64,000 nucleotides of DNA from a virus. Of the stretch, positions 411 through 50,300 are shown one piece after another. The DNA lies in IMG/VR virus record IMGVR_UViG_3300045996_002184; one strand, given 5' to 3'. The notes under the pieces were generated by a model. It searched no databases. It was not told where the DNA came from and saw only the letters and a program-made list of their open reading frames with translations. A program made the position numbers and the translations under genes. Numbering within the stretch: position 1 is the first letter of the stretch; every line of letters starts with the position of its first letter.

Positions 411-1214
411 TCAGTTCATTTTCTGGTTGACTACCACTTCATCTGAAGCTTCGTCTCCCCAGGCTGTAACAATGCAGTAAAGTTCGACCCCTTTATATTG
501 CACCGGGGCCAACACAACAGGATCGGGAACTTCTCTAACGAGCATCTGATTCTTTACCTTGTACCCAACCTGTTCCATATCTTTCAATGGAGCTGCGATC
601 TGCAGCGTTACTCTGTCCTTGTGAATCTCGTTACTATGAAATCGTATTTGATAATGATCAGCAGAAGCTTCGGCAGCAGCAGCAGATTTTGCTGATTCCT
701 GTCGATCGTATTCATCTTTACTACACTCTCTGGAATTGGACCTACCGAAATCACCGCTAATATATTTTGTGTATCTGGTATTGAGTTCGTTTTCGTCCTG
801 AAAGAACTTATCGATCTCAGTCAGGTTCTTAACGGGTACGAATCCCTTGTACTGACTAACACCACCGATCACAAGATCATACTTGTGACAGATTCCAAGC
901 GCAGCCTCCGGAGTAATGAACTTGTAGCCAGGATACCTGGTACCGAAGTATTCAAGCGCTTCGGTAAGTTGCTGGAGTTCCAGTTTCTTGTTATGCGCGG
1001 TATCAGCCTGCTTCACTTCGGACGCATTTCCAAACCCATACTTTTTCAGGGCATGGATCTTGTTCTCGTTGATGACAATAGCTTCGGCAATGATCTCCCT
1101 GGCCTCTTTTACCAGGCGTTCACCGGTACTGTTAAACAGGTTATGGATCTCTTCCACCACTGCCGGGTACCCGGCATCTTTTGATACCGGTCTTTTCTTG
1201 AAGATGTTCAGCAT
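411..1214 (-). CDS. Hypothetical phage protein
   Basis: Long ORF. Start moved to MLNIFKK (1214), which follows an A-rich Bacteroidota-type leader; the upstream 12 codons run into the 1242-1355 RNA element. Confidence 0.75.
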   Translation of the reverse strand: MLNIFKKRPVSKDAGYPAVVEEIHNLFNSTGERLVKEAREIIAEAIVINENKIHALKKYGFGNASEVKQADTAHNKKLELQQLTEALEYFGTRYPGYKFITPEAALGICHKYDLVIGGVSQYKGFVPVKNLTEIDKFFQDENELNTRYTKYISGDFGRSNSRECSKDEYDRQESAKSAAAAEASADHYQIRFHSNEIHKDRVTLQIAAPLKDMEQVGYKVKNQMLVREVPDPVVLAPVQYKGVELYCIVTAWGDEASDEVVVNQKMN

Positions 1215-1241
1215 GACTATTGGGTTTTGTTGAGTTAAAGA

Positions 1242-1355
1242 TAAGCACACCTGACATTTATTATCCCTGCCCGATATTGAACGCTCAACCCGATGTTGAT
1301 CAAAGTGTTTTGCGTTTGTCGTTGACCGTCGGGCCTAGCGCGGTTGGTGTGCTTA
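1242..1355 (-). promoter_or_regulatory. Multi-branched RNA element in the 5' leader of 411-1214
   Basis: 10-bp closing stem TAAGCACACC/GGTGTGCTTA (1242-1251/1346-1355) with internal helices GCCCGA/TCGGGC, AACGC/GCGTT and TCAAC/GTTGA. Confidence 0.45.
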
Positions 1356-1361
1356 AAGTGG

Positions 1362-1817
1362 TTATTGCGGCAAACTCTTCATAACCTTGGCCATCTTGTC
1401 GATGAACATGGCTTGTTTGTCTTCCAGGCTCAGGAATTGCTCGGCCTCCTTCTGGAGTTCCAGCAGCGTCTCTTGAGTTTCCTTCTGCTCGATGATTGCT
1501 TTGCGCAGTTTGATGTCGTCAGTCCAATCCTCCAGCTTGAACCCGTTGTGGGTGAATACTGGATATTCCTGGATATCCAACGCGGTAGCCGCGTCATTGT
1601 AATCGTCATGCTTACGTTTGATCAGCGCATAGGCACGAAGCAGGTTTTCGATCTTGGTCTCCTGGTCTAGGTTCGTAAAGTTGTTACCGATGTTACATGA
1701 CGTCTTGTAGGCGCTATCGGTGATCTTCTTGAGCCGAGCCAGTTTATCCTTAATCGCTTTAAGGATTTCGGGTACTTGTGATGTTGGCGCTATGGCCGTG
1801 TTCTGTGATTTTGACAT
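1362..1817 (-). CDS. Hypothetical alpha-helical/coiled-coil protein
   Basis: 151-aa ORF co-oriented with its neighbours; K/E/L-rich helical composition. Confidence 0.75.
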   Translation of the reverse strand: MSKSQNTAIAPTSQVPEILKAIKDKLARLKKITDSAYKTSCNIGNNFTNLDQETKIENLLRAYALIKRKHDDYNDAATALDIQEYPVFTHNGFKLEDWTDDIKLRKAIIEQKETQETLLELQKEAEQFLSLEDKQAMFIDKMAKVMKSLPQ

Positions 1818-1827
1818 TTGCTTGGTT

Positions 1828-2130
1828 TTAGTAAGGTTGATAATTGTCGTTTACTATCGTGTTGGTAAGGAAATAAGAGGCATCGATAATCTTGTGGCCT
1901 GAGCCTACGTAAAAATGCTCTGGAGCATATCTTATTGTGTTAGGATAATATCCCAAGCTGTAACAGGTCTGTGATCCATACGTTTCCCAGTGATCCTCAG
2001 AAGTAGTGAGCTTATTTGTTGGGGATAATGACCTTAATAAATTACTAAGATCATTTGCTTCCTCCTGAGTATAACAATGAATTACAGTCTTGGTACCCAA
2101 CAACGATGTTAGTTTTTCAATACGGTTCAT
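1828..2130 (-). CDS. Small hypothetical protein with C-terminal tag VNDNYQPY (array gene 5)
   Basis: Start MNRIEK overlaps the stop of the upstream gene by 14 nt; TVIHCYTQEEA motif typical of small phage proteins. Confidence 0.75.
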   Translation of the reverse strand: MNRIEKLTSLLGTKTVIHCYTQEEANDLSNLLRSLSPTNKLTTSEDHWETYGSQTCYSLGYYPNTIRYAPEHFYVGSGHKIIDASYFLTNTIVNDNYQPY

Positions 2131-2434
2131 ATTCATCGTTTACTGGTGAGAAATTGGGTTTGAACGGTGTGTACTTTCTGTTCTGTAAACACCCATCCAG
2201 CCACACTCGTTCTCCGGGTGTTGTTTCGTAGACTTCTTTAATCCTATGTGTTAAGGTAAAAACACCGGAAGAGTATGTATTACCTGTGTCATTGTGACCG
2301 TAGAATTTAACTACTGATCCAAGATCATGGACTTTATCATCATGTATTTCATCGAAGATAATCCACCAGGTATTATCGTCATCCGTAATACTTATACGGT
2401 ACCATTGACCGCGGATCATTTCAGTAGGGTTCAT
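2117..2434 (-). CDS. Small hypothetical protein with C-terminal tag SPVNDEYEPY (array gene 4)
   Basis: Start MNPTEM by analogy with the other junctions; beta-rich N-terminus followed by ETTPGERVWLDGC helix. Confidence 0.75.
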   Translation of the reverse strand: MNPTEMIRGQWYRISITDDDNTWWIIFDEIHDDKVHDLGSVVKFYGHNDTGNTYSSGVFTLTHRIKEVYETTPGERVWLDGCLQNRKYTPFKPNFSPVNDEYEPY

Positions 2435-2765
2435 ACTCGTCATTTACAGGTGAGGAGATATCGTTGAAATCCACAAAAGAGTAAGGGTTAACATGTATGG
2501 GACATGGTACCGTATCATTAGCACGGATACACTCATTAAGCCATGCCTCTTCCATACAGGTAGCCGGTCTAAAACTGACGTGGTTCCCAGAACAACAATG
2601 TCCCACATTGAAAATACGCGGATTACCAGTAGAAATGAATGGAGTATTTTCACTTCCCGCTAAGTTGTTAATGTATTTGAATATGACCTCCATTTGCTTT
2701 CCGTGCCATTCCCAATAACCCACGTACACTCTCCCCGGTACCATGTCTTTTTCAGTAAGGTTCAT
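2421..2765 (-). CDS. Small hypothetical protein with C-terminal tag SPVNDEYEPY (array gene 3)
   Basis: 114-aa ORF; RPATCMEEAWLNECI motif similar to genes 2 and 4. Confidence 0.75.
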   Translation of the reverse strand: MNLTEKDMVPGRVYVGYWEWHGKQMEVIFKYINNLAGSENTPFISTGNPRIFNVGHCCSGNHVSFRPATCMEEAWLNECIRANDTVPCPIHVNPYSFVDFNDISSPVNDEYEPY

Positions 2766-3087
2766 AAGTATCGTTTATGGGTGAATTAATAGGTTGCAGT
2801 GCAGGGACAGGACCGTCAATCAAGTCATAAGCCAGGATCTCTTCGTTAGTAGCCTTACGGAGTTTCAGTTTGTTATTACAATCCTTAGAATCTTTAGTGC
2901 TCCAACCGTTACTGCTACTGCCACGAATATCCTTATGAATTCGGAAACAAAAAGTACTGCTGTCCTCTCTGAGTTTGTACACATGGTTAGCCGGGATAGT
3001 TTCCCAAAAATCGGTACCAGTACATGCTTGTAATAACACCACGTAGGTACCTGCCGGGAAATAATTCGGATCGTTAGTATGGTTCAT
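2752..3087 (-). CDS. Small hypothetical protein with C-terminal tag SPINDTYEPY (array gene 2)
   Basis: 111-aa ORF; LRKATNEEILAY motif. Confidence 0.75.
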   Translation of the reverse strand: MNHTNDPNYFPAGTYVVLLQACTGTDFWETIPANHVYKLREDSSTFCFRIHKDIRGSSSNGWSTKDSKDCNNKLKLRKATNEEILAYDLIDGPVPALQPINSPINDTYEPY

Positions 3088-3565
3088 ACGTGTCGTTTAT
3101 TAGGTTAGGTAATACAGCGGTATCAGGTCTGGTGGCTATTATCAGGTACTCTCCAGTGCGTAATACTTCATTCACTCTTTTCACCGTGAAATTTTGTGTG
3201 AAAAAAGAAGAACTTCGAAGAGTAACCCACTCCATGTGATCAGGAGAATTTGTTATGGGGTAATCTATTTTGAAGATTGTACTGGTTAGTTTGTTTTGTA
3301 TCTGCAGACCAATGAGTTGTCCTCGGGTAAAATCAGGCCACCTGATCTCGAATACAGGTGATACCGATTGCCACTTGCCAGAGTTGAGTCTGTTGAGGAT
3401 GTAACCTAAAGTACAGTTATCGTAGTACACCTCCTTACTCATGGCAGCACGGTACGCATTCGTAACCTGTCCATTGACCGGATTGATCTTGGTGATCGTA
3501 TACACGGTTGAGCCTCCGCGAGTAAACTGGAAGCCTTCTTTGATGTGTTCAGCTGAGTAATTCAT
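3074..3565 (-). CDS. Hypothetical protein, two tandem small beta-domains, C-terminal tag INDTYEPY (array gene 1)
   Basis: 163-aa ORF preceded by an AACCTTAAAC leader; the two halves share a YTITKI/IFKID...LNSGKW/LRTGEY pattern. Confidence 0.75.
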   Translation of the reverse strand: MNYSAEHIKEGFQFTRGGSTVYTITKINPVNGQVTNAYRAAMSKEVYYDNCTLGYILNRLNSGKWQSVSPVFEIRWPDFTRGQLIGLQIQNKLTSTIFKIDYPITNSPDHMEWVTLRSSSFFTQNFTVKRVNEVLRTGEYLIIATRPDTAVLPNLINDTYEPY

Positions 3566-3576
3566 GAGTTTAAGGT

Positions 3577-3861
3577 TTAGAGGGTGACTAATTTGAGTGC
3601 CAGGAAACGTATAGATTCCATGATCGCCTCGTTGTACTTGCCTTTGGGACAGTCTCCTTTTTCAAGACCATAGACATAAAGCAAACCAACTGATACACCC
3701 AAGACCTCTGCTATTATTTTCAGATTATCCGGGTGAGGCATTGACTGGTTGCTTTCTATGAGACTGATACCGGCCTGAGTCAAACCTACAGAAGACGCCA
3801 GTTCGTCCTGGGTCATGCCCACTGCTCTACGGACATCTTTGATTGCTTTTCCAAGGTTCAT
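3577..3861 (-). CDS. XRE/Cro-C1-type helix-turn-helix transcriptional regulator
   Basis: IKDVRRAVGMTQDELASSVGLTQAGISLIESNQSMP...LKIIAEVLGVSV is a canonical HTH_3 pattern. Confidence 0.9.
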   Translation of the reverse strand: MNLGKAIKDVRRAVGMTQDELASSVGLTQAGISLIESNQSMPHPDNLKIIAEVLGVSVGLLYVYGLEKGDCPKGKYNEAIMESIRFLALKLVTL

Positions 3862-3907
3862 ATAAATGGGTTTAAAGGTTAAGGTAAAAATTTGCCCCTA
3901 CGCACTC

Positions 3908-4146
3908 AGTTGTAATAGCCAATGTTTATTACAGCCCTCAGAGCTGTTGATTGGTTGTTTACCAGTCTATAATCACCAGACTGCACTATTACAACTGCTC
4001 ACCCTTGGGAGCTGATTAATTAGGACAGTATGTTTTATGTCCCTACCACATTATTAAGTGAATGTTACTACATAGCTGTAGTTTTATTAATCAGGTAGTT
4101 TCACATCTTAGTCTTTCTGTAAAGGTTATATTTCAAACCACCTAAG
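3908..4146 (-). other. Three tandem multi-branched stem-closed RNA/DNA structures
   Basis: CAGTTGTAATAG/CTATTACAACTG (3908-3997, 12 bp), CTGATTAAT/ATTAATCAG (4012-4094) and TCTTAG/CTAAGA (4107-4146), each enclosing 2-3 hairpins. Confidence 0.5.
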
Positions 4147-4177
4147 ACGTCTCTATTTCTACGTGAGTTGTGGTGCG

Positions 4178-5581: not shown

Positions 5582-5710
5582 TCAGTTCAGCCTGTACTTG
5601 CCTGTGTAGCATCCCTTGTATGGTTTGCTGCTGCAAGGATTGTACGTCGTGCTACATGCGGTCATCGCAAGAGCGATAACGACGACGATAAGGATCAGGG
5701 ATCGTTTCAT
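5582..5710 (-). CDS. Small predicted lipoprotein (42 aa; not in the ORF track)
   Basis: MKRSLILIVVVIALAMTA-CSTTYNPCSSKPYKGCYTGKYRLN: basic N-terminus, hydrophobic core, lipobox Cys. Confidence 0.6.
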   Translation of the reverse strand: MKRSLILIVVVIALAMTACSTTYNPCSSKPYKGCYTGKYRLN

Positions 5711-5736
5711 GAGTGTATATTGAGTGGTTAGGAATA

Positions 5737-5769
5737 GCAAGAAAATCTCCCCGACTAATCAGGGAGATT
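5737..5769 (-). terminator. Intrinsic terminator after 5779-6375
   Basis: AATCTCCC/GGGAGATT stem (5744-5769) followed by TTTTCTT on the minus strand. Confidence 0.6.
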
Positions 5770-5778
5770 GTTGTGACG

Positions 5779-6375
5779 TTACGCGTCAACCTTAGCAGCA
5801 TCAGCCTCAGCTGGTACTTCTGCAGTTTCATCGTCCCCGAACACGCCTGTGAGTTCTTCGAGTGAGAACTCCGCTTTCTTAACCTCTTCAGGTTGTGCGA
5901 TAGCGATGGTCTTGGGATCGAGTGACAGCAGCGAGCCTTTCTCGGTTGTGATCTGCTCAACTGTTCCGATGATCTCGGTGTTGGCTGTGATCTGTTCTGC
6001 GACGGCGCTGGGAAGCAGCACACCTACGGAAACCTGCGTTTTGTTCAGGTAATCGTTGAAAAGCTCGGAAGCTTTTTCGGTGTCTCCCGCTTTCTCAGCG
6101 GCAAGGGCGTCTACCAGGATCTGGCGCGTACGAGGATTCTTCATCGCAACCTCTGAGTTCGCGCGAAGATTGAAGATCTTCTTGCGGAGCACTGTACCAG
6201 GCTCTGATACTGATTGTACCAGTTCGCCTGCAGCATCGGTTACGTCTATGACGTTTCCGTTGCCCTGCACCAGTAATCTGATCCTCTTGCCAACGTGTGA
6301 CAATGTGACCAATGCTCTTTGTTTCATGATTGCGATGACACCTTGTTGTGTCATTGTGCGAGTGTTCTGTGACAT
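5779..6375 (-). CDS. Hypothetical protein with acidic tail (possible nucleic-acid-binding protein)
   Basis: Start moved to MSQNTR after the A-rich leader TCATAAAAACTCAAACAGA; beta-rich body and acidic C-terminus. Confidence 0.7.
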   Translation of the reverse strand: MSQNTRTMTQQGVIAIMKQRALVTLSHVGKRIRLLVQGNGNVIDVTDAAGELVQSVSEPGTVLRKKIFNLRANSEVAMKNPRTRQILVDALAAEKAGDTEKASELFNDYLNKTQVSVGVLLPSAVAEQITANTEIIGTVEQITTEKGSLLSLDPKTIAIAQPEEVKKAEFSLEELTGVFGDDETAEVPAEADAAKVDA

Positions 6376-7431: not shown

Positions 7432-8016
7432 ATGCCCATCTCCGAACAACAGTTCCTGGAGTCGGCTCAGCTGCTTAACGTACCGGTCGCTGCTATCAAG
7501 GCAGTGGCTGAAGTTGAGAGCGCCGGCGCAGGTTTCCTCTCCACAGGAGAGCCCAAGATTCTCTTCGAACCTCACATCTGGTGGAAAGAACTTCGCAGAG
7601 CCGGGCTTGATCCCGCGCAAATACTCGCTGCAAATCCTGACATCTCTGACATCCTCTACCAAAAGTGGGGAAGCAAACCTTATGGCGGTATCATGGTACA
7701 ACACAAAAGGCTAGCTCGTGCCGTAGATGTTAACCGGGAGACTGCACTGATGAGCGCCTCTTACGGTAAGTTCCAGATCTGTGGTTTCAACTGGCAGCTT
7801 TGCGGTTGCAGGGACCTGCAGGAGTTCATCAACAAGATGTACCGGGACGAAGATGCCCAGCTGGAGCTGTTCTGTAATTACATCAAGCGGACTCACCTGG
7901 ATGATGAACTGCGTGAGGGAGACTGGGCGGCCTTCGCACTGGCATACAACGGACCTTCTTACCGTAAGAATGCCTACGACACCAAACTCAGGATGGCAAA
8001 CGCCCGCTATTCATGA
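7432..8016 (+). CDS. Endolysin, N-acetylmuramidase (DUF3380-type)
   Basis: AIKAVAEVES...PKILFEPH...SASYGKFQICGFNW...DWAAFALAYNGPSY..NAYDTKL motifs. Confidence 0.9.
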   Translation: MPISEQQFLESAQLLNVPVAAIKAVAEVESAGAGFLSTGEPKILFEPHIWWKELRRAGLDPAQILAANPDISDILYQKWGSKPYGGIMVQHKRLARAVDVNRETALMSASYGKFQICGFNWQLCGCRDLQEFINKMYRDEDAQLELFCNYIKRTHLDDELREGDWAAFALAYNGPSYRKNAYDTKLRMANARYS

Positions 8017-8579
8017 TACACGTTATTCATACAAGTGACAGGGTTGACCGGTATGAACTTTTGCAGAAGGAAGTGCATACTCACGCTCTCAAAATCAACC
8101 TCTGGCAGGGAGAGAGAGCTACCCCGGTATCAAAAGGGGTGGCCCTTTCCCATAAAAAGATCGTGCAGTGGGCGCTTGACACCGGGTTGCCGGAAGTGTG
8201 TATCGCTGAAAACGACTTTCACCTTGTCGGTACCGGTGCCTGGGAACATTTCCTCTCTCAGAAGCCTGCTGAATACGACCTCTACCTCGCTTCTATGTAT
8301 GTGAAGTGGCCGGTGGGAGATACCTCAGACGTCAAAGACTTCCGCGGTATGACGCTTTACTTCGTTCACTCACGTTTTTACTCAAGGTTTCTTTCTGTAC
8401 CCGATCAAGGGCACATAGATTTTCAATTATCACGCTTAACCGATAGAAAATATGTCGTCTGTTACCCTTTTGCTGCGATCCAGCATGAAACCTACTCTGA
8501 TAATGCTAAGACGACGCACAGAAACCAGGACTACCTCGCAGACAAATTACTTTATGACCCATTCATTCAAACCCAATGA
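8013..8579 (+). CDS. Glycosyltransferase, GT25-like
   Basis: RVDRYE...KGVALSHKKI...VCIAENDF matches the GT25 R..R / G..LSH / LEDD pattern. Confidence 0.65.
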   Translation: MIHVIHTSDRVDRYELLQKEVHTHALKINLWQGERATPVSKGVALSHKKIVQWALDTGLPEVCIAENDFHLVGTGAWEHFLSQKPAEYDLYLASMYVKWPVGDTSDVKDFRGMTLYFVHSRFYSRFLSVPDQGHIDFQLSRLTDRKYVVCYPFAAIQHETYSDNAKTTHRNQDYLADKLLYDPFIQTQ

Positions 8580-17755: not shown

Positions 17756-18907
17756 ATGAACATTCGATTATTCCGTGACCCGCTCGCACCGGGTCCTTCG
17801 CTGGCGGATCTGGACGATCCCAATTATGTACCCAAGACAAACGACATTACTGATCCTAAGAACCAGGTCGATCCTCCGGGCGATGATAAGCCTGCTGATG
17901 ATCCAAAGGTGGAAGGCGTCAATGATGATGGTACGCTCGCAGAAGGTTACGAACGTAACGAGCTGGGAGAAGTAGTTAAGAAGCCGGATGATTCTGCTGA
18001 TGACAACCCGGATGATGATGCTGACGACGCCGGAGATGACGCTGGAGATGAGGTCAAGCCAGAAGCGTTCTTCGAAGAGGTGAATAAACTCACCGGTATC
18101 GAACTCAAAGTGGAATACCCAGAAGGTGTTGATCCACTCACGCCACAAGGTATAGCTGTAAGAGACAAGGTAGTAAGAGAACAAGCCATGCTTGACTTTG
18201 AAGAAACGATCAAGAAGGCTGATCCACGCGCGTACGCCTATATGGTACACCGCGCAGGTGGTGGAGCTGATACCGATTTTTTCGAGAAGCGTAGTGCAGG
18301 CTATGTACTCCCGTCATCTGATGAATTGAAAGATTCAGTTGATATGCAAACAGCGGTATACAAGCATGACCTGATCGCTAAGGGTAACTCCGAAGAAGAA
18401 GCAGACCTGCTCGTGAAAAACGCCATCACCAATAACAAGCTCCTGGAGAAAGCAACCGCCTCTCACAAGAGTATTGATGAGGCCCAGAAAAGTCAACTCG
18501 CACAAGCCGAAGCCCGCCAGGCAGATGAGCAAAAGAAGTTCGATACCGCAGTAAAGACGGTGACCAAGCAGATCGAAACAACGATCACTTCAGGCATTTC
18601 TTTCGTGGTACCGGAGTCAAAGCGCAACGAGTTCCAGCAGTTCGTTATCGACAAACTGCAGTATGACCAGGAGAGCGGAAAGTTCATCATGGTACAGGAA
18701 CTCGATCCTACTGATTTGAAAAAATCTATGGAAGCGATGCTTTTCCAGTTCATGGACGGTGATTTGAGCAAAGTTGTGAAGCAACAGGCAGGGAAGGAAG
18801 CAGCACATCAATTAAGGCTGCGTATAAAAAAGGACCAACAGGGTGGTGGCGGAGGCTCACAAGGCGATAGAAATAAAACCGGATACATACCTTTAGGCTC
18901 ATTATAG
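17756..18907 (+). CDS. Putative scaffolding/capsid-assembly protein
   Basis: Very acidic N-terminus and helical body; lies between portal and MCP. Confidence 0.6.
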   Translation: MNIRLFRDPLAPGPSLADLDDPNYVPKTNDITDPKNQVDPPGDDKPADDPKVEGVNDDGTLAEGYERNELGEVVKKPDDSADDNPDDDADDAGDDAGDEVKPEAFFEEVNKLTGIELKVEYPEGVDPLTPQGIAVRDKVVREQAMLDFEETIKKADPRAYAYMVHRAGGGADTDFFEKRSAGYVLPSSDELKDSVDMQTAVYKHDLIAKGNSEEEADLLVKNAITNNKLLEKATASHKSIDEAQKSQLAQAEARQADEQKKFDTAVKTVTKQIETTITSGISFVVPESKRNEFQQFVIDKLQYDQESGKFIMVQELDPTDLKKSMEAMLFQFMDGDLSKVVKQQAGKEAAHQLRLRIKKDQQGGGGGSQGDRNKTGYIPLGSL

Positions 18908-41380: not shown

Positions 41381-44300
41381 ATGTCTTCTGTATGTCATCA
41401 CCTGGCTCCCAACGGCCAGAAATCCATTCTTTACCAGCAACTAGAACTTAAGGTTGGTGCCGACAAGGCCCATGACATCTGGACGGACATCCGTTCCCAG
41501 CAGTTCTTGAATAAGCATGGCGACTGGACCAACACGACAGGATCGGTGGAGTCAGGATCTTCTTATACAAATCACTCCGGTGGAGCCAATGGGGCAGATA
41601 CCTGGTGGGAAAAGATCGGCAAGGAGTACGGTGTAGACCAACATAATCAATACTGGCACGGTACCAAGACACCTACTGGTAATTTCGAGATCAGTAATGA
41701 GGAGATTGAAGAGGGTTGGCAGCAGGTATTGAAAGCAAATCTGTCTCTTAAACGCAGGCCGAATGCAGCGAAGCATAAGTCCTTACTCGGCAGGAACTGG
41801 TTCCAGGTAAAAAACTCAGATGGCGTATTTGCGATAGGAAAGCTTGCTTCTCCCGCAACTGTTGACGGTGGAACAGGTTGGGCTGTACAGATGGCCATTG
41901 ATAATAACAAACCGGTTTACGTATTCGACCAGGAAACAATGGATTGGTACGAGTATTCCTATAAACTGAACAGATTCATAAGAACGACTACGCCAAAACT
42001 CACAAAGAACTTTGCCGGTATTGGTAGCAGGAAACTGACTGAGGCTGGTAAAGCAGCGATCCGTACGGTATATGCAAAAACCTTTACAGCGAGTACAGCA
42101 GAGATCTCGTTGGATATGAACGGTGAACCTACGATCGATTGGGTATTGGAACGTGTAAATGTTCAATCGGTACCAGTAGAACGTGAGGTTGTGAAAAGGT
42201 CATTCGAACCGGCCAAAGCAGTAAAGGTCTCGGAGCGTCAAACCGAAGAGGAATTCCTGGCTACGATCAAGAACTTCTACGATGAGGCAAGTAAGAACCC
42301 GGAGAAGATCTATACAGTGGATTACCTGGCCAAGTCTGAGAAGAAGCGTTACCCAAGCGGGTACACGTCCAAGGAACTGGCTATCCTCTTTGATTCGATA
42401 CCGATGCCATCTAACGTGGCCTTCACGGAAAGTTTCGGTAAGCTGATCGCTAATACTCCTCGCAGGATCCTTTCATCTTTCACTTCTATAATACCGGTGG
42501 AACTAATGGGAAGAGATGAGGCAGCAATTCACCAGGATATGGCCAGGCTGCTTGTACCAAGGATAGATGCCGATGGGAACCACGTAGGTTTCTTTGATTC
42601 AGCTGAACATCTGGAAGTAGTTAACTCCATGCTCTATACTACTGTAAAATACCTGACGAGTGATCCTTCCCTGAAGGGTAACGCAATCATCAAAGCTTTT
42701 TACTCGGCTAACGAGAGTCGTAAAGCGATGGATGCCGCTGGTATTCAAAATGACCGCAGGGAGAACCTGTTTCATATTTACCAGGCGAGAGAGCAGTTCG
42801 CTGATGCGCTGATCACAAAGCTGGAAACGCTGGGTTGGAAGATATCTGACCAGGCCCGTGCACGCATACTCTCCGGGGTACGGTACCTGCAGAACTTAGG
42901 TGAACGTGAAAAGCAGGTGATGGATGAAAAGGAACTGGAGTTTGCAGATACGCTTGATGATACAGAAGATTTTGAAGAGGCTATGGGTCACGGTCTTAAA
43001 GATTGGAACGACGTTGTGTTCGAACTTGACCCAAAGGACACTGCCTCAGCCAGGTTGAAACTCTTCATGGCAGTACTGCCTGAGATGGACCGCGGTGTAT
43101 TCACTGTGAGTGAGGAAGGAGTAAAGATCATGGACGCAGATATCATCCAGGCTGCCAAGACTGGTCCTGCCGCGCTTAAAGCTTTGAAGGAAAAAGACCC
43201 GGCGAGAATGTCTGGTCTTATGCGTTCGGTACACCGCAGGCAGATGTGGCTGGGTAGCCAGGAAGCTTCTGAGAACATGCAGAAGTTCCTGCAGGAAGAG
43301 TATCCAAGGATACCGATGACCAACTTTATCGGTCTTCGTAAGCTGGTGGATTTTGAAGAGATCTTTAAGGATACCATGGAGCTGCTCGCCGATCAGCCGC
43401 AGGACATTGGCAAGTATATAGAAACTCTTGCAGGTAGCGGTAAACCCAACCTGCAGAACCTGGCACTGGAACTGGAGCGGGCCCCGGAGCAACTCCAAAA
43501 CGAGTTTGCCAAGGTGATGAAAAAGCAGTACCAGCAATTCACCCTATTGCTGTTCAAGAACACCAAGGAAGACGGGATGGAGTTCTTTGAACTCAACCCG
43601 ATCAATGCCAATCGTTACAGCCAGAAAAATACCATACTCAAGCACTGGAAGGAAAACCAGAAGCTGTCTCCCATTATGATACCGGCCCCGGGTGGGGATC
43701 GCCAGATCGATACTGAGCGGGCAATCAAAAAGTGGGTCCCTTACCTGGAACGGGCAAGGTCAATTGATAAGTGGGTGACTGAAACGGTGGACAAGAATAC
43801 CAGGAGAAAAAAGAAATGGCTCACTGAGGAAGCCAAGCGCGAGGTAGCGACCTTTGGTAATATCCTTCGCTACGTCGGTATCGACATGAGTGATGAGATG
43901 CTCAAAGACCTTTTCCTCAATACTGAACGCTGGACCAAGGGTAGTAAGTATGAAGGTGGTATTGCTCGCCAGTTCATGGTGACCAAGGATGGGCAACCCA
44001 ACGGTATATTCTCGTCCATCATTATGAAGCTTGCCGGGTTTAGCAGTGACGCCGACCAGGAAGAAGATGTAGAACCGGCCAAGCGTGCTGAGCTGAATAA
44101 TCCACTCTATACCGAGAACAGTGCGATGAAGGTACTCTCAGCAGTGGCTGCCAAGTATACACCTGCACTTCACTCACCCAATCACAAGAGCGGCGAAGGA
44201 AAGAGCGTGTGGGATTACGGACTGCCTACCAGGCTTTCCAATACTGTGCTTGCTATGAAGACGGACTTCGAGGGGTTTAAGGCACAGTTCAAGGATATAG

Positions 44301-47300
44301 ATATCGCACGCGACAACTGGATGCTTACGCTGCTCAGTGATAATCCGAAGATGCAAAGTAAGATCCAGGTTGAGTACATGGATGTTATCAAACCGAGCTG
44401 GGCCAAAAAAGGTACCACCAGGCAAGGTATGAGCGATCGGGAACAGGCTTTGTTTGCGATAGGTAATTTCCAGAACAAGGGCCAGTCCCCAAAATATGTA
44501 TCACTCACCCACGCGGATAAAACAACCACACCGGTATTCTCCGGGTTTGGTAAAGCGGTGAACATCGGTAAGGTAATCGACGATCGTGGTGCGCACCTGC
44601 CACTCCCCTCAACCGTTGTGGGAGATATGACAAGTAAGTTTTTCCAGGTGTTTAAAGCGGAGCACTCCCGCATACTCAACCAGAAGAAGCCTACTAATAA
44701 CCGCCAGTACGATCAGGGTAAGCAACTCTTTTATTTCATACCGGACTTTAACTATGACGCGATGAAAGCCATGGTTGAGACTGGTGAGCTTACCGAAAAG
44801 GAGTTCACTTATATATGGGTGGGTGGCCAGAGGAACCTTACTCAAGTGATACACGACGATCGGGAACTGCCAGTGATCAATAAGATCATCAACCGTTACC
44901 TTGATCGTATCATCCTTAATACCGAGGAGCGTTGGATGAAGTACGGTATCATTGGAAAAAAGAACCTGCAGTTCGATCGGAAGTATATCCGTAAAATGCT
45001 CAAAGCCGCCGGTATCAAAGCAAGCAAGTCACCATCAGGTAAATACACCTATACGAATGATAAAGGTTTAATCCTTAGCGAGGAGCAGTTACGAACAATA
45101 ATGATAAAGACCGCAACAAGGGACTTTGCTGTAAACTATACGCTCTTTAACATCAGTACCTCACAGATCATGTTCGGCGATCCTGCCATGGCCTATAAGG
45201 GCAAAGATGGAATGAACGACCTGGAGAAGGTAGCTGCTACCATGAAGGAATACTCCAAACGTCTGGCCAAAGACATTGCCCCGGGTCAGGAAGGTAACTG
45301 GTTACCCAATGAACGAAAGTTCACCGCTATTACCCTTGCCGATGTGGAGACTTCAGAAAACTACCTGGAGAATACTGCACCTGAGCTGGCCAAGGCGTAC
45401 GGTAAGGTTGATGCGACAGACGCCCAGGAATTCACTACCGTGAAAGAGCACCTGAGAATACTCAAAGCCATGGGCCTGGTACCGGCGACAGTCTTCAATG
45501 AAATGGTAAAGATCATTGATGAAGCTGGTCCGGAAGGTTATTATGCTTTCGAGAAACCGGAACACCTGGAAGTGGTCATGCAGCCAATGAAACCAGTGTA
45601 TTCCTACACCAGGAAGGTTGGCCGGGCAATGATGGAAGATTACGTGAAGTCCTCTTCTTACCCACTCTACCCGCCAATGATACGTGGTACCGAGTTATGG
45701 CACTTGCGTACCATGATGGAGTTTGAAGGTATCGATCGCGCACATTTCGCCTCAGCCAAGAAATTGGGCCAGCCAACAGAGCCGGTGACTGTATTCAATA
45801 AGAAAGGTGAGTTTACCTTGCCTTCTACCGAAGTACTCAAAGCAGGCATCGTTCAACTGGACCGTGCAGGTTTCAGGATCCAGCAGGAAGTACCTTACGA
45901 GGAGACCAAAACGCATATCAAGACCGTGAGCCAGATGAATAAGCTCATCACTCAAGGGATTGGAAAGATATCAGGTTTCCAGGTACCGGGCCACGATAAG
46001 ATGAACGGTACTGAACTGCGCAAGCTGAAAGAAGAAGTTAGATCTAAGATGATCGGTCTTCAGCTCCGCGAGTTCCTGTCAAAGCTGAATATTGATGAAG
46101 ATACTCTGGACTTTAATGACAAGGGTAAAATCTATGAACTCCTGGTTGAGGAAGCTACCCGTAAGGGCTATACGCTTAATGAACTCCAGAGCCTGATCGG
46201 CCGTGATGAAAATGGTGAATTGCATATCCCGCTTGTTTACAATACCGGGGTTGACCGGTTTGAGTCGCTGCTGATGAGTATGGTAAAGAAGATCGTGGAT
46301 GTGAAGATGACCGGTAAGTCATTTATCCAGGCGTCTTCCGTTGGCTATTCATTCAAGGATGAGGCAAGTATCAACAAGAGCAAGATCGTATGGTTGGATG
46401 GATACGACGGTTCACCGCTTAAGACTTTGCACCACGATAAAGATGGTAAGGTTAGAGCAGCTCAGGTACTGGTACCGTTCAACTTTATGGACGCTAGTGG
46501 TAACGCAGTTGACATTTCAAAGTATACTATCCGCCGTGACGGCCGGACTTATATAGATGAGACCAAGATCCCAAGGGAACTGATGCAGTTGATCGGTGCG
46601 CGTATTCCCAACCAGGGTCACAACTCCATGTTACCGATCGAGATAGTTGGCTTCGTGCCAGCAGAGATGGGAGATATCATTGTGGTACCGTCGGCAATCA
46701 CTAAACAGATGGGAGCTGACTTTGACGTGGATAAACTGTTCACCTACCGTAGGCCGTACGTTATCCAAGAAGACGGCTCGTTCACTATGGTACCGCTGGA
46801 AAGTGAAGACCAGATGGCAAAGCTCCAGGGCCAGTACTTCGATATCCACTGGGCAGTACTCATGCATCCAAAGATGACCCAAAAGATCTTGAGTCCGCTG
46901 GATAAGAAGGATCTGAAACTGGAGGCTGAGAAACATGATCCGAAAACACTGGTTGATTTCTATGATGTAAACTCCCAGATGGATGACTTCCAGCGCGGTA
47001 AGGATGCCAAGCTCCTGGTAGGTGCTACATCTCTTTCAGTGACATTCAACTCAGTGATAGAAGACAAGGCTTTGCATATCGTAAAGCAGGTACTGGTAGA
47101 CAGTGATGAAGTAGAAGGAGAAAAGAAAGTAAAGATCGTTCGTGACCATGTTTATGTACTCGGTGACAACGGAGAAGAGATCGGGCTCACCAATCTCTCC
47201 GGAGAAGGTAAGTCCAGTTATAACGGTGAGGAACGTACCAAGCATGACAACCATACTACCATTCAGTCTGCGGCAGTGGATAACGCCAAGGAGAGAACCC

Positions 47301-50300
47301 TGGATAACTTAAATATCACGCGGCACACCTACCGTGCAGCAGCTGCGTTTGTACAACTGGAAGATGAAAGTGGTACCGCAGTTGACTTGCGTTACGTAGT
47401 GGGACTACTCACTCAACCGGTTATCCGGGAGTATGATGAGCTGATGAGGCAAGGCAATGACTCACTCTCAGAGGAGTTCTCCCGTGATCTCCACGGTAAG
47501 GTAGTGGCTCAACTCCTGAGCAAACTGATCAGTGAAGGAAAGTTGACCGAGGAGCAAATAGAAGAGATAGATACGATCAGGTTCTCACCAAAGAAATTCG
47601 ACCAGGCCCGTTCTATGGATGGCGCTGCTTTTGTTATGCATCAGCTCGCTGCCTTGCAACTGTTCAGTAAGCTCACCGATATCGGTCAGCGTATGGGTGA
47701 GATCAAATCCATGATCAACCAGGATACCAACGGTGCCGGAAAAAACATATTAGCATCGCTGGACAAGCAAAAAAAGATTGACGAAATATCAACCGGTATC
47801 ATCGCAGGGGCAGAAGACCTGCTAGATGGTACTGAGCAGGAGACCATATACAATGCGACAACCGTGATCGCAAACGTAGTTCTCACGCAAGTACTCCCTT
47901 ACCATAAACTCCAACCGGTATTCGACAGGATCCTGGCAGAAAGTGGCAGGGATAAACTTTCTAACGATCAGCAGCGCAGTATCGTAAAAGCGGTGCGGTC
48001 GTTCGTGTACTCTCAAGGCCAGCACTGGTGGATCAATGCCCAGGAAGATCGCGTTCGTTTGATGTACAACCGGGCCGATGAACCTTCTCTTGCACGCAGG
48101 CTGATGGAAGTCAAAAGAACCTGGGGCAAAGACAATTACTTCCTGGCAAGGCTTGACGTAAGGATCGGGGACAGCAAGGAAGGCCCTGATTACGTTGAGT
48201 ACCAGGCGGCATCCATTGGCCGGATAGACGAGCAGCAGAACGTACGCGCCTGGATGGAGATGTTACTCTCCAGTGACCCTTTAGTGAGATCTCTCGGCGA
48301 GGACCTGCTTCGCTACGCGTTCCTTACCGGTGGCGTACAGGATGCCAACTCCTTTGTCAAGTTTGTACCAGTATCGTATATAGCCAACACTGGGTTTGGC
48401 CAGATGCTCAAAGACCGTAACTGGGCGCAAGTAGGTTCAGAAGTGAACGGATCTGAGACTCCCGGGTTTATCGAGCAATTCTTCCAGCACAATCCTGATA
48501 TGGCAACTCAGCTCTCCACAGATGTCTTCAAGGGAGAATCAGTAGAATACCTGGAAGCGATACCGGTGCCAGAGATTGATAACCCAAAGTTCTCTGCCTT
48601 CTCAAATCTCTTGCGCGGTAAGGAACTGCTTCCTTACGCATCTTTCAGGAGTAAGACCGAAGGAAAGATGATCCTGTATAAGCTACACTACCAGGGTGCT
48701 CAGCCTTATTATATCCGGATCGATACGCTGGGTAACCAGTATTCAGACGAGTACAATGGTAATATCGACAGTGGCCAACGTTCACTCTTTACCGATAACA
48801 GGTCCCTGGCTCAGGTGATACCGGCGGCCAATGCCATTCAGCAGATCGAGGATGCTATCCGTCAGGAAGGTGGCAGTGCAAACGAGACTGTGTATGAAAA
48901 ACTGGGTGTATCCCCGGGCGGTCTTCGTAATATTGAAGCAGCTACGTCACAGATCGCAAGTAATGTCTGGGTACCGCAATACCTGCGTACCACAGCTACG
49001 ATGCTCAGCGGTACCAAAGGACTCAACCGTGAGGCTGCAGCCGTGCTTGGGATACACTTTATCCCCTCACTCGTATTTGACGAGACACTAGCAACTGCGG
49101 GCACATCCAAGTCTTCGGGATCGATTGTTATCAATCCGCTGATGGCTTCCTCAGTTAAAGGTGGAGCCGAGGTATTTCTGCACGAGCTTATGCACAACCG
49201 CTTGCAGACAGTGATCATGGCTACCGGTAATGATCCAAGGGTGATCGCTCAACTCCAGGAAGCTGGACCAGATGCACTCCAGGCATACTTAAACAACGTA
49301 GCGAAGTTCAAGGGAAAGTATACGAAGCTGCAGGAACATATTGATGAACTGGAGCGGGTACGCTATGAAGCGCTCAACCGTCTTCGTAAAGACCTGGGGG
49401 AAGAAAGGTTTAACGAGGTAGTATCAGAGGTTACGAATGGTACTACCGGGTCGCATGAACACATGCTAGTCTATGCGCTCTCTTCCGTGCACGAGCTGAC
49501 CTCTCACGTCATGACCAACTCTCACGTTGCAGCGTATCTAAATAAGATAGAGTCGTCCAAGGGCCAAAGTATTCTGTCACTCATCATGGATAAGATCGCG
49601 GAACTCTTCCTGGAGATGGCAAATGCATTTGGTTTCCCGGTGCGTGATAAGTCACTTTTAAAGGACGCGCTCATTCATACTATCGCACTCGTACAATCAG
49701 AAGGTGACGTGCAGGTGACGGTAGATGAAGCACTATCCAAGCAAACCCTGATCATTACAGATACGGAAGGAAAAGCAAACGAGATACGTGACCTGGCTGA
49801 GAACGTGTATCACCGGGTAACCAATACCGAGCTGCGTGGCCATGAGCATGTGATCCATATCACGAACGAGATCCGTGGGAAAAGCCAGGTGGATAAACTG
49901 ACTGAGGCCCTTGGTAAGCAACTCGAAGACGCAGGTTACGCCATGGGCACTGCACGTTCGCGCAAGGAAAGGATCGCAGCCGCCATCCGGTATCGTGATA
50001 TCAAGGAGCAACTGCAGGAACTCAAGCGTACCAAAAGCGTGAACCTGATCGCTGTTACCGGTAAGAAACAAATGGAGTGGGTGGATAAGGTGCTCGCCAA
50101 GGATAAACCAACGGCAGTCGAGGTCAATATGGCGATCAAGCTTTCCAACATGTGGGGCGGGATCATCGAGCTGTTGTACAGCGAGTTTGACCAGACTCCA
50201 GAAGTGAGTGATGACCTGGCAAAGATCGCAGCTGCCGGCAAGCGTCGTGTGATCGATCTTACCGCTAAGGCAAAAGAAGTAGTAGCTGAAGCGCTCTCTG

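Follow-up and report, generated by a model that had tools for sequence, protein, structure and literature searches.

The window analysed here, which is the whole stretch of 64,000 nucleotides (nt) from the IMG/VR virus record IMGVR_UViG_3300045996_002184, carries five consecutive minus-strand genes (1828–3565, named g1 to g5) whose products end in (V/I)-N-D-x-Y-(E/Q)-P-Y, directly followed by the stop codon. The array had been predicted from the letters of the window, and both the list of open reading frames (ORFs) and a six-frame regular-expression search bore it out. Judged against the tails found in other phages, this ending is one version of a tag with a broader consensus, hydrophobic-N-(N/D)-x-Y-x-(I/P)-(Y/F)-COOH. 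As codon usage and distribution show, the tag is widespread and strictly terminal, occurs on many phage proteins of unrelated sequence, and is under selection as a free peptide end. Such a tail would in all likelihood act as a peptide address tag that is read by a common partner. The best candidate for this partner is p151, the product of the untagged gene right downstream of the array, which the original prediction had passed over. Gene-neighbourhood comparisons show that the tag is genomically linked to p151 across lineages; from these we infer that p151 may bind the tag physically and act as the hub that reads it, a proposal to which we give nearly even chances.

Five dissimilar proteins of the window end in one peptide

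As anticipated, no other gene of the window carries the tag: the pattern [VIL]ND.Y[EQD]PY returned exactly five matches in the six frames of the 64 kb, all of them directly before a stop codon. The bodies of the five proteins are largely different, in line with the original prediction, and pairwise Smith-Waterman alignments of the tag-trimmed sequences gave z-scores from −1.4 to 2.6, which means no similarity. Via intermediate homologues g2 and g3 fall into one family, and g2 has a BLAST match to a tagged gene (18554–18868) of the complete 164-kb phage genome G004. None of the five tagged proteins matched a Pfam or PHROG family, and no homologue of g5 besides itself was found among 5.8 billion proteins.

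Within the tag, the synonymous codon variation that had been described was observed again (AAC/AAT, GAC/GAT, all four Pro codons, TAC/TAT and TAA/TGA). Four junctions have a 14-nt overlap (ATGAACCNTAYTRA) in common, in which the TAT-GAA of the tag provides the ATG of the next gene. The last copy keeps the peptide without supplying a start, as previously pointed out, reading TATCAA there with no overlap. Altogether, the wobble variation, the strictly terminal position of the motif and its independence from the next start codon uphold the view that the peptide rather than the DNA is selected.

Residue profile and codon usage of the tag

A tag profile was built from 117 tags. With positions counted back from the terminal residue, it has Y (107) or F (10) at −3, I (108), V (5) or P (4) at −1, and Y (106) or F (11) at the terminus. 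Position −2 is E in 91 of the 117 and otherwise P, D, Q, A, S or I, while position −4 is most often N (46), followed by Q (18), T (12) and S (10). The core is usually preceded by N or Q, with E-P or I-(I/N).

The profile bears on the earlier suggestion of mimicry of the single-stranded DNA-binding protein (SSB), in which the tail would copy its acidic (I/L)-P-F tip and compete for SSB-binding pockets. The SSB tip (D-D-D-(I/L)-P-F) and the tag both end, on a disordered tail, in an aromatic residue whose carboxylate is free, and the window version places an acidic residue and Pro before it, thus ending acidic-Pro-aromatic (E-P-Y). However, the consensus of the tag family is Y-x-I-Y-COOH. It lacks the Pro, which gives way to Ile at −1 in 108/117 tags and among the profiled tags is confined to the window, and it lacks the acidic run, the single acidic residue being dispensable (Q, S, A, N or P stands at −2 in the loci L161, L163 and L296). 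Terminal Tyr is far commoner than Phe, and no Pfam-type SSB with such a tail was found in the tag-bearing phages. Moreover, one SSB tail is read by many partners, whereas here many proteins bear the tail. SSB mimicry is not supported, and we give it hardly any credence.

The tail could also be the by-product of a nucleic-acid element at the gene junctions, either a translational-coupling site or a cassette recombination joint, and the same 14-nt stop/start overlap, with TAT-GAR supplying the ATG, is indeed found at four of the five window junctions and at 27 of 117 overall. Most tags, however, have no start overlap, and the next gene begins anywhere from −32 to beyond +100 nt. Relative to the tag end, the next start lies at −14 in 27 junctions and at +2 in 30, is missing within 100 nt in 13, and otherwise falls mostly between −32 and +60. 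In the complete 175-kb phage genome G001, the tag codons are TAT (11) or TAC (17) at −3, ATA (11), ATT (16) or ATC (2) at −1 and TAC (9) or TAT (19) at the terminus, followed by all three stop codons; wobble positions vary freely while the first and second codon positions are fixed. Tyr at −3 is encoded by TAC in 17/28 of the G001 tags (61%) as against 15% genome-wide. This preference suggests selection against a spurious ATG inside the tag where the next gene starts elsewhere. The variants FPIY and YPIY contain no ATG at all. Given the variable start spacing and these ATG-less variants, the overlap is best seen as an opportunistic use of TAT-GAR and not as the cause of conservation. Tag DNA identity within one genome is also too low for a recombination joint. 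The junction-element explanation is thus largely refuted, and we consider it very improbable.

In G001 the motif occurs in 27 copies at ORF ends as against 5 internal copies in ~56,000 residues, an enrichment of ~900-fold. In a G001 protein of 150 amino acids (aa), tagged itself (L154:15852–16304), an internal EPTYEIL runs straight into MKYTKEQL, with which the next gene product usually begins. Two tagged genes seem to have fused here, a tag having been internalised through loss of a stop codon.

In the AlphaFold 2 (AF2) model of g3, the predicted local distance difference test (pLDDT) score is 70.7 overall and ~40 in the tail, and a small beta-barrel and a helix are followed by a low-confidence linker of ~25 residues (from ~residue 88) and then by the tail. 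On this model, the tag probably follows a disordered linker. Tails of this kind might instead bind each other, the N/Y-rich, beta-strand-like peptide (I-I-N-N-Y-E-I-Y) zipping mixed oligomers or condensates together without a dedicated receptor. In its last eight residues the tag alternates between hydrophobic and polar and is rich in Asn and Tyr, which recalls short self-associating peptides, but self-association would explain neither the requirement for a free carboxy terminus nor the linkage to p151. We rate it as very unlikely.

The tag recurs in arrays of unrelated phages

We collected 119 tagged proteins, which form 72 BLAST clusters and have a median length of ~89 aa; the largest cluster has 27 members and includes g2 and g3 of the window. 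The number of clusters rules out, for most members, a paralogue array with a conserved end. At least 20 independent contigs of uncultured phages carry the tag.

An exhaustive HMMER search with g3 yielded standalone homologues of ~100 aa with 31–46% identity. Conservation in orthologues had been named as a check on the tag, and these homologues keep a related tail, ending in DNFPIY, NDFPIY, PQYEIY, NNYEIF or PSYDIY. They lie in arrays of small genes whose bodies are unlike one another but which, within each array, end alike: DNFPIY on three genes at L003, (E/D)(N/D)FP(I/T)(Y/W) on four at L004, (Q/E)(Y/E)EIY on four at L005, I-N-(N/D/S)-x-Y-(E/D)-I-(F/Y) on ten at L022, P-(N/Q)-Y-E-I-Y on ten at L023, N-Y-E-I-Y on six at L024 and Y-(E/D)-I-Y on four at L025. 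The L022 tail matches that of the window residue for residue, except for Ile instead of Pro at −1. With a related tail on distant g3 orthologues and on dozens of unrelated proteins in many phages, the core of the original prediction, variable bodies joined to a common address label, is strongly supported; the specific mechanisms attached to it (SSB, PDZ, protease) are not supported.

When IMG/VR was scanned at the DNA level for N-Y-E-I-Y-stop, 116 loci came up, 101 of which have no in-frame tagged ORF, while a minority have 3–12 each. The tag is most abundant in G001, where 27 tagged genes lie within 24 kb and make up ~7% of the ORFs, and where 'EIY' is by far the most frequent C-terminal tripeptide; G004 has 12 tagged genes. 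G004 is distantly crAss-like and the terminase and portal of G001 are unrelated, so that the tag-bearing phages are not one lineage. Only six ORFs are common to the two genomes, thymidylate synthase and homing endonucleases among them.

N-D-x-Y-E-P-Y-stop, the exact tag of the window, had one chance match in IMG/VR, on a high-GC contig and not at an ORF end, and 39 matches in JGI metagenomes, with no arrays and no p151. The pattern (D/E)-N-F-P-I-Y-stop gave 16 matches in IMG/VR, mostly out of frame and without arrays. Searches of GenBank phages with the window region, the g3-family protein P0015 and the window's p151 turned up no relative. Five unrelated-looking metagenome contigs, one named human gut (L303, L304, L310, L318 and L330), have a common 43-aa ORF ending FNDAYEPY; with no array and no p151 on these contigs, the ORF is probably unrelated to the phage tag. 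Among the 120 pattern matches listed for bacterial and archaeal genomes, there were no arrays, no p151 and no conserved host gene with the ending, and four were unrelated singletons; the scan was codon-restricted, which makes it a weak negative on mimicry of a host tail. The lack of arrays and of p151 among these cellular matches is, within the same limits, in favour of a tag system specific to phages. A PRTase_3/TerC/TerD/TerD cluster, tellurite-resistance-like, stands between tagged genes of a 22.7-kb phage contig (L023, 2748–6490).

The tagged proteins are small and mostly without assigned function

Nearly all tagged proteins (>110) are small and without functional assignment; they are probably early or accessory proteins. 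Two enzymes are exceptions, a Dam-type methyltransferase that adjoins the G004 array and ends IHNYKIY, and a PD-(D/E)XK exonuclease of G001 that ends SPFEIF. When 44 representatives of the tagged clusters were compared with Pfam and PHROG, the sole informative matches were to one Dam methyltransferase, and the rest were weak or to uncharacterised families. The body of g3 has a weak match to Sm/SH3-like folds (Z 5.5), and g3-type domains are also repeated inside multidomain proteins of 385–954 aa.

A PDZ or protease-adaptor ligand had been put forward in the original prediction. PDZ ligands have a hydrophobic residue with a free carboxylate at position 0 and a PDZ protein as reader; in the tag, position 0 is aromatic and strictly terminal. 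No PDZ domain was found in the neighbours of the window array or in the scanned array genes, and neither a PDZ nor a protease gene accompanies the arrays; these observations do not support the idea. Host PDZ proteins are periplasmic. No signal peptides were noticed on the tagged proteins.

A conserved host hub might read the tag in place of a phage protein, be it the beta sliding clamp or another DNA- or RNA-associated hub of Bacteroidota; p151 would then be a co-regulated member of the module with another job. Clamp-binding consensus sequences are C-terminal pentapeptides of the Q-L-(S/D)-L-F type. Like the tag, these bacterial peptides and the tails of T4 gp43, gp55 and gp33 that bind gp45 are short hydrophobic/acidic C-terminal peptides on unrelated proteins, in T4 those of one phage; they converge on one hub, as the tag would. 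The core of the tag, (N/Q)-(Y/F)-(E/D)-I-(Y/F)-COOH, resembles the polar/hydrophobic/acidic-or-small/aliphatic/aromatic order of the clamp pentapeptide, in a pattern that is partly similar and fits loosely at positions −3 to 0. Both tagged proteins with an assigned function act on DNA, the tag is common to unrelated phage lineages, as expected of a conserved host target, and no DnaN-type clamp of the phages' own was found in five tag-bearing phages. However, each variant of the tag is specific to a genome (YEPY, FPIY, YPIY, YEIY and Y-x-IY), which suits a phage partner that co-evolves with it better than a host pocket under strong conservation. The Pro of the window at −1 sits where the clamp pocket needs an aliphatic residue, and the first-position Gln is present in only ~15% of the tags. 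Most carriers are tiny, and it is hard to rationalise how thirty small proteins would all compete for one clamp pocket. Finally, a dedicated helical protein co-occurs with the tag, and a host hub leaves the tight synteny of p151 without explanation. We consider a host hub unlikely.

p151 is a candidate partner of the tag

In an all-versus-all comparison of the window, G004 and G001, p151 was the only protein common to all three besides a FEN-type exonuclease. Its homologues in G004 and G001 have 39–42% identity and lie inside the tag arrays, and among ~160 loci fetched p151 homologues are restricted to array-bearing loci. The family has 33 members of 83–171 aa, with no fusions and no Pfam domain. 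It matches phrog_2574, a PHROG without known function (E=6.9e-8 with the p151 of the window, 4.4e-10 with its G001 homologue); against GenBank phages the G001 homologue had weak matches only (best E 5e-3). The AF2 model of p151 (pLDDT 86.6) consists of four helices joined by two loops. These loops hold the nearly invariant residues K38-T39, F47, G92 and W98-x-x-D101-I102, and F88 is invariant in a six-sequence alignment.

p151 lies beside or within a tag array in 16 of 17 independent loci, which include unrelated phage lineages and loci picked by p151 homology alone. Arrays abut p151 in three of four contexts picked in this latter way: eight genes ending IIN-x-Y-x-IY stand directly upstream of it at L161, five ending LYPIY surround it at L163, and five ending NYEI(Y/F) are upstream of it at L164. 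Five further array-bearing viral records have one p151 copy each (5/5), flanked by tagged genes in four, and all seven IMG/VR loci retrieved via p151 alignment have a tagged gene within 73–843 nt. The order, array followed by p151, is the same in the window, L025, L028, L161, L164 and L296. A remote p151 homologue (hhalign 91%) was also found in the Prevotella phage Lak-A2, a published megaphage whose host belongs to the Bacteroidota (L298, MK250019.1, 6995–9243, code 15), where the three genes after it end KYEI, NYDI and MYEL, that is, in the core tag minus the last aromatic residue.

These observations are consistent with the following mechanism. The tail would be a short linear docking motif, borne on a flexible linker and active as a C-terminal peptide with a free end, its core being the aromatic residue at −3, Ile (Pro in the window) at −1 and the Tyr/Phe carboxy terminus, usually with N-(N/D) and a hydrophobic residue ahead. 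Through it, a whole set of small, mutually unrelated phage proteins would be recognised by one partner, together with the occasional enzyme such as the Dam methyltransferase or the PD-(D/E)XK exonuclease. The likeliest reader would be the phage's own p151, single-copy and with two conserved loops (K-T, F, G, W..D-I), which would move with the arrays between unrelated phage lineages and, as a hub, gather the tagged proteins into one complex or one place. In its fullest form, p151 would be a dedicated hub that reads Y-x-(I/P)-(Y/F)-COOH and builds a non-covalent 'modular polyvalent' complex of dozens of effectors and enzymes, portable among Bacteroidota phages from soil crAss-like phages to Lak megaphages. 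This fuller picture, of which we found no description in the literature searched, is in our view rather less likely than not, and we hold it tentatively.

Several points weigh against p151 as the reader of the tag. Fold searches (PDB Foldseek, AFDB clusters, VIA wide and atlas) returned generic coiled-coils only, with Z below 7, plus one unnamed AFDB homologue, and p151 shows no recognisable peptide-binding fold. The p151 locus L162 has no clear tag. The Bacillus phage Smudge (L170, KX156152.1, 6962–7384) encodes a remote p151 homologue, gp235 (hhalign 94%), whose neighbours share no tail and which has no array nearby; the p151/phrog_2574 family is thus wider than the tag and not obligatorily tied to it. 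The variant with Pro at −1 is so far limited to the phage of the window. The synteny of array and p151 could reflect common regulation or a mobile cassette instead of contact, and, as the window covers 64 kb of the ~94 kb of this phage, further genes may be common to the tag-bearing phages. The locus was found in no RNA run. In a complex prediction, p151 (34 alignment rows) paired with g3 (7 rows) reached 0.15 and 0.01, under the 0.32 mark, and this outcome is taken neither for nor against binding.

At L162 (JGI 3300060297; 1921–2428, 5605–5946 and 7757–8074), two consecutive genes end WWW-stop, the gene just upstream of p151 ends SIKPY, and another ends SPINSYNLI, resembling the SPIND-x-YEPY of the window. 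These endings may be a diverged or alternative tag.

A phage ClpS homologue (PF02617) is encoded at L161 (5428–5727), 3 kb downstream of p151. Its proximity in this one locus bears on a further explanation, namely a C-terminal degron: the tag would set the time at which a protease of host or phage removes the early proteins, and p151 would serve as adaptor or anti-adaptor. A terminal, linker-borne hydrophobic/aromatic tail on many small, probably early proteins does look like a degron, and the ssrA tag with its adaptor SspB likewise combines a C-terminal peptide with a small dedicated adaptor; p151 handing tagged proteins to another machine would be the same type of idea. The tail is, however, unlike the known C-terminal ClpX motif and has no LAA-type protease signal, ClpS reads N-termini and not C-termini, and protease genes show no consistent linkage to the arrays. 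Neither is the tag added by transfer-messenger RNA (tmRNA), being genome-encoded, nor does the helical p151 match SspB; a dedicated co-inherited helical protein is not obviously needed for a degron. We judge this explanation improbable.

Comparison with known systems and significance

The closest architectural parallel is with the cargo-loading peptides of encapsulins, where unrelated cargo proteins from clustered genes also carry a short peptide at the extreme C terminus after a flexible linker and have one reader, here a candidate. The two differ in that the encapsulin motif is Gly/Ser/Leu-rich and the motif here is Y-x-I-Y, that the reader there is a shell of the HK97 fold and here the small four-helix p151, with arrays far from capsid genes, and that dozens of cargo-like genes per genome lie here in a non-structural block of lytic phages. 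By analogy the tag could be a virion-loading signal, through which tagged proteins would be packed in the capsid and injected with the DNA, p151 being a loader or scaffold. crAss-like phages carry cargo proteins. Encapsulin cargo is built in the same manner, variable proteins with a short peptide at the C terminus behind a flexible linker, P1 DarB is a precedent for a packaged methyltransferase, and p151 is all-helical, as scaffolding proteins are. Against this, the arrays and p151 lie in non-structural blocks: in the window they follow an XRE regulator gene and diverge from the late operon, and in G001 tens of kb separate them from terminase and portal. The tag is also common to phages with unrelated capsid genes. 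Virion loading is in our opinion quite improbable.

The proposed handling of many small counter-host domains as a unit, with g3-type domains also occurring inside multidomain proteins, further recalls the P1 Dar and T4 internal proteins and the polyvalent proteins of phages and conjugative elements (Iyer et al. 2017). Unlike these, the proteins described here are encoded by separate genes and could be joined only non-covalently, via the tag.

That proteins share a terminal docking peptide is nothing new in itself (clamp-binding tails, SSB tips, encapsulin cargo peptides and degrons). In the literature searched, we found no such tag at such a scale, across unrelated phages and with a dedicated helical protein. 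Most small early phage genes lack a known function and any handle for study, and here one peptide handle is common to up to 7% of the genes in some large phages and to unrelated lineages, with a candidate reader that can be cloned; p151 and the tag peptides form a directly testable pairing. If this pairing is true, a whole set of host-takeover or counter-defence proteins could be retrieved at once. It would also explain how a fast-evolving accessory repertoire stays functionally connected, a new gene needing only eight terminal codons, and it would offer a compact orthogonal tag-receptor pair for Bacteroidota biology.

Layout of the array and its window

The genes at the array are listed in Table 1. 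The XRE-type gene is separated from the start of g5 by an 11-nt gap. The g1 tag contains no start codon, and 10 nt separate the stop of g1 from the next gene. Two ORF-poor stretches (1–405 and 3862–4177), earlier flagged as structured RNA, matched no Rfam family at the gathering threshold, and no transfer RNA or tmRNA was found anywhere in the window.

Table 1. Coordinates of the genes at the tagged array (positions in the window)
Feature	Position	Strand	Description	Basis
XRE/Cro-type helix-turn-helix regulator gene	3577..3861	-	directly upstream of array	Pfam HTH_3 E=1.3e-14
g5	3074..3565	-	163 aa, tagged, ends LINDTYEPY; tag at 3077-3100	ORF list and regular expression
g4	2752..3087	-	111 aa, tagged, ends SPINDTYEPY; tag at 2755-2778; start overlaps g5 tag by 14 nt (3074-3087)	
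g3	2421..2765	-	114 aa, tagged, ends SPVNDEYEPY; tag at 2424-2447	
g2	2117..2443	-	105-108 aa, tagged, ends SPVNDEYEPY; tag at 2120-2143; probable start 2434 (14-nt overlap 2421-2434)	
g1	1828..2136	-	100-102 aa, tagged, ends IVNDNYQPY; tag at 1831-1854; probable start 2130 (overlap 2117-2130)	
p151	1362..1817	-	151 aa, untagged, single-copy, right downstream of array	four-helix AF2 model
279-aa gene	411-1250	-	beyond p151 on the minus strand	

The window has 48% GC and is classed as a divergent crAss-like phage; terminase and portal genes are present, and its major capsid protein has 32% identity to the crAss002 counterpart. The phage turns up in soil metagenomes. A virion-RNA-polymerase-like ORF of 3949 aa (41381–53230) aligns to a 4737-aa ORF of G004 (28% over 239 aa) and is presumably the crAss-type virion RNA polymerase.

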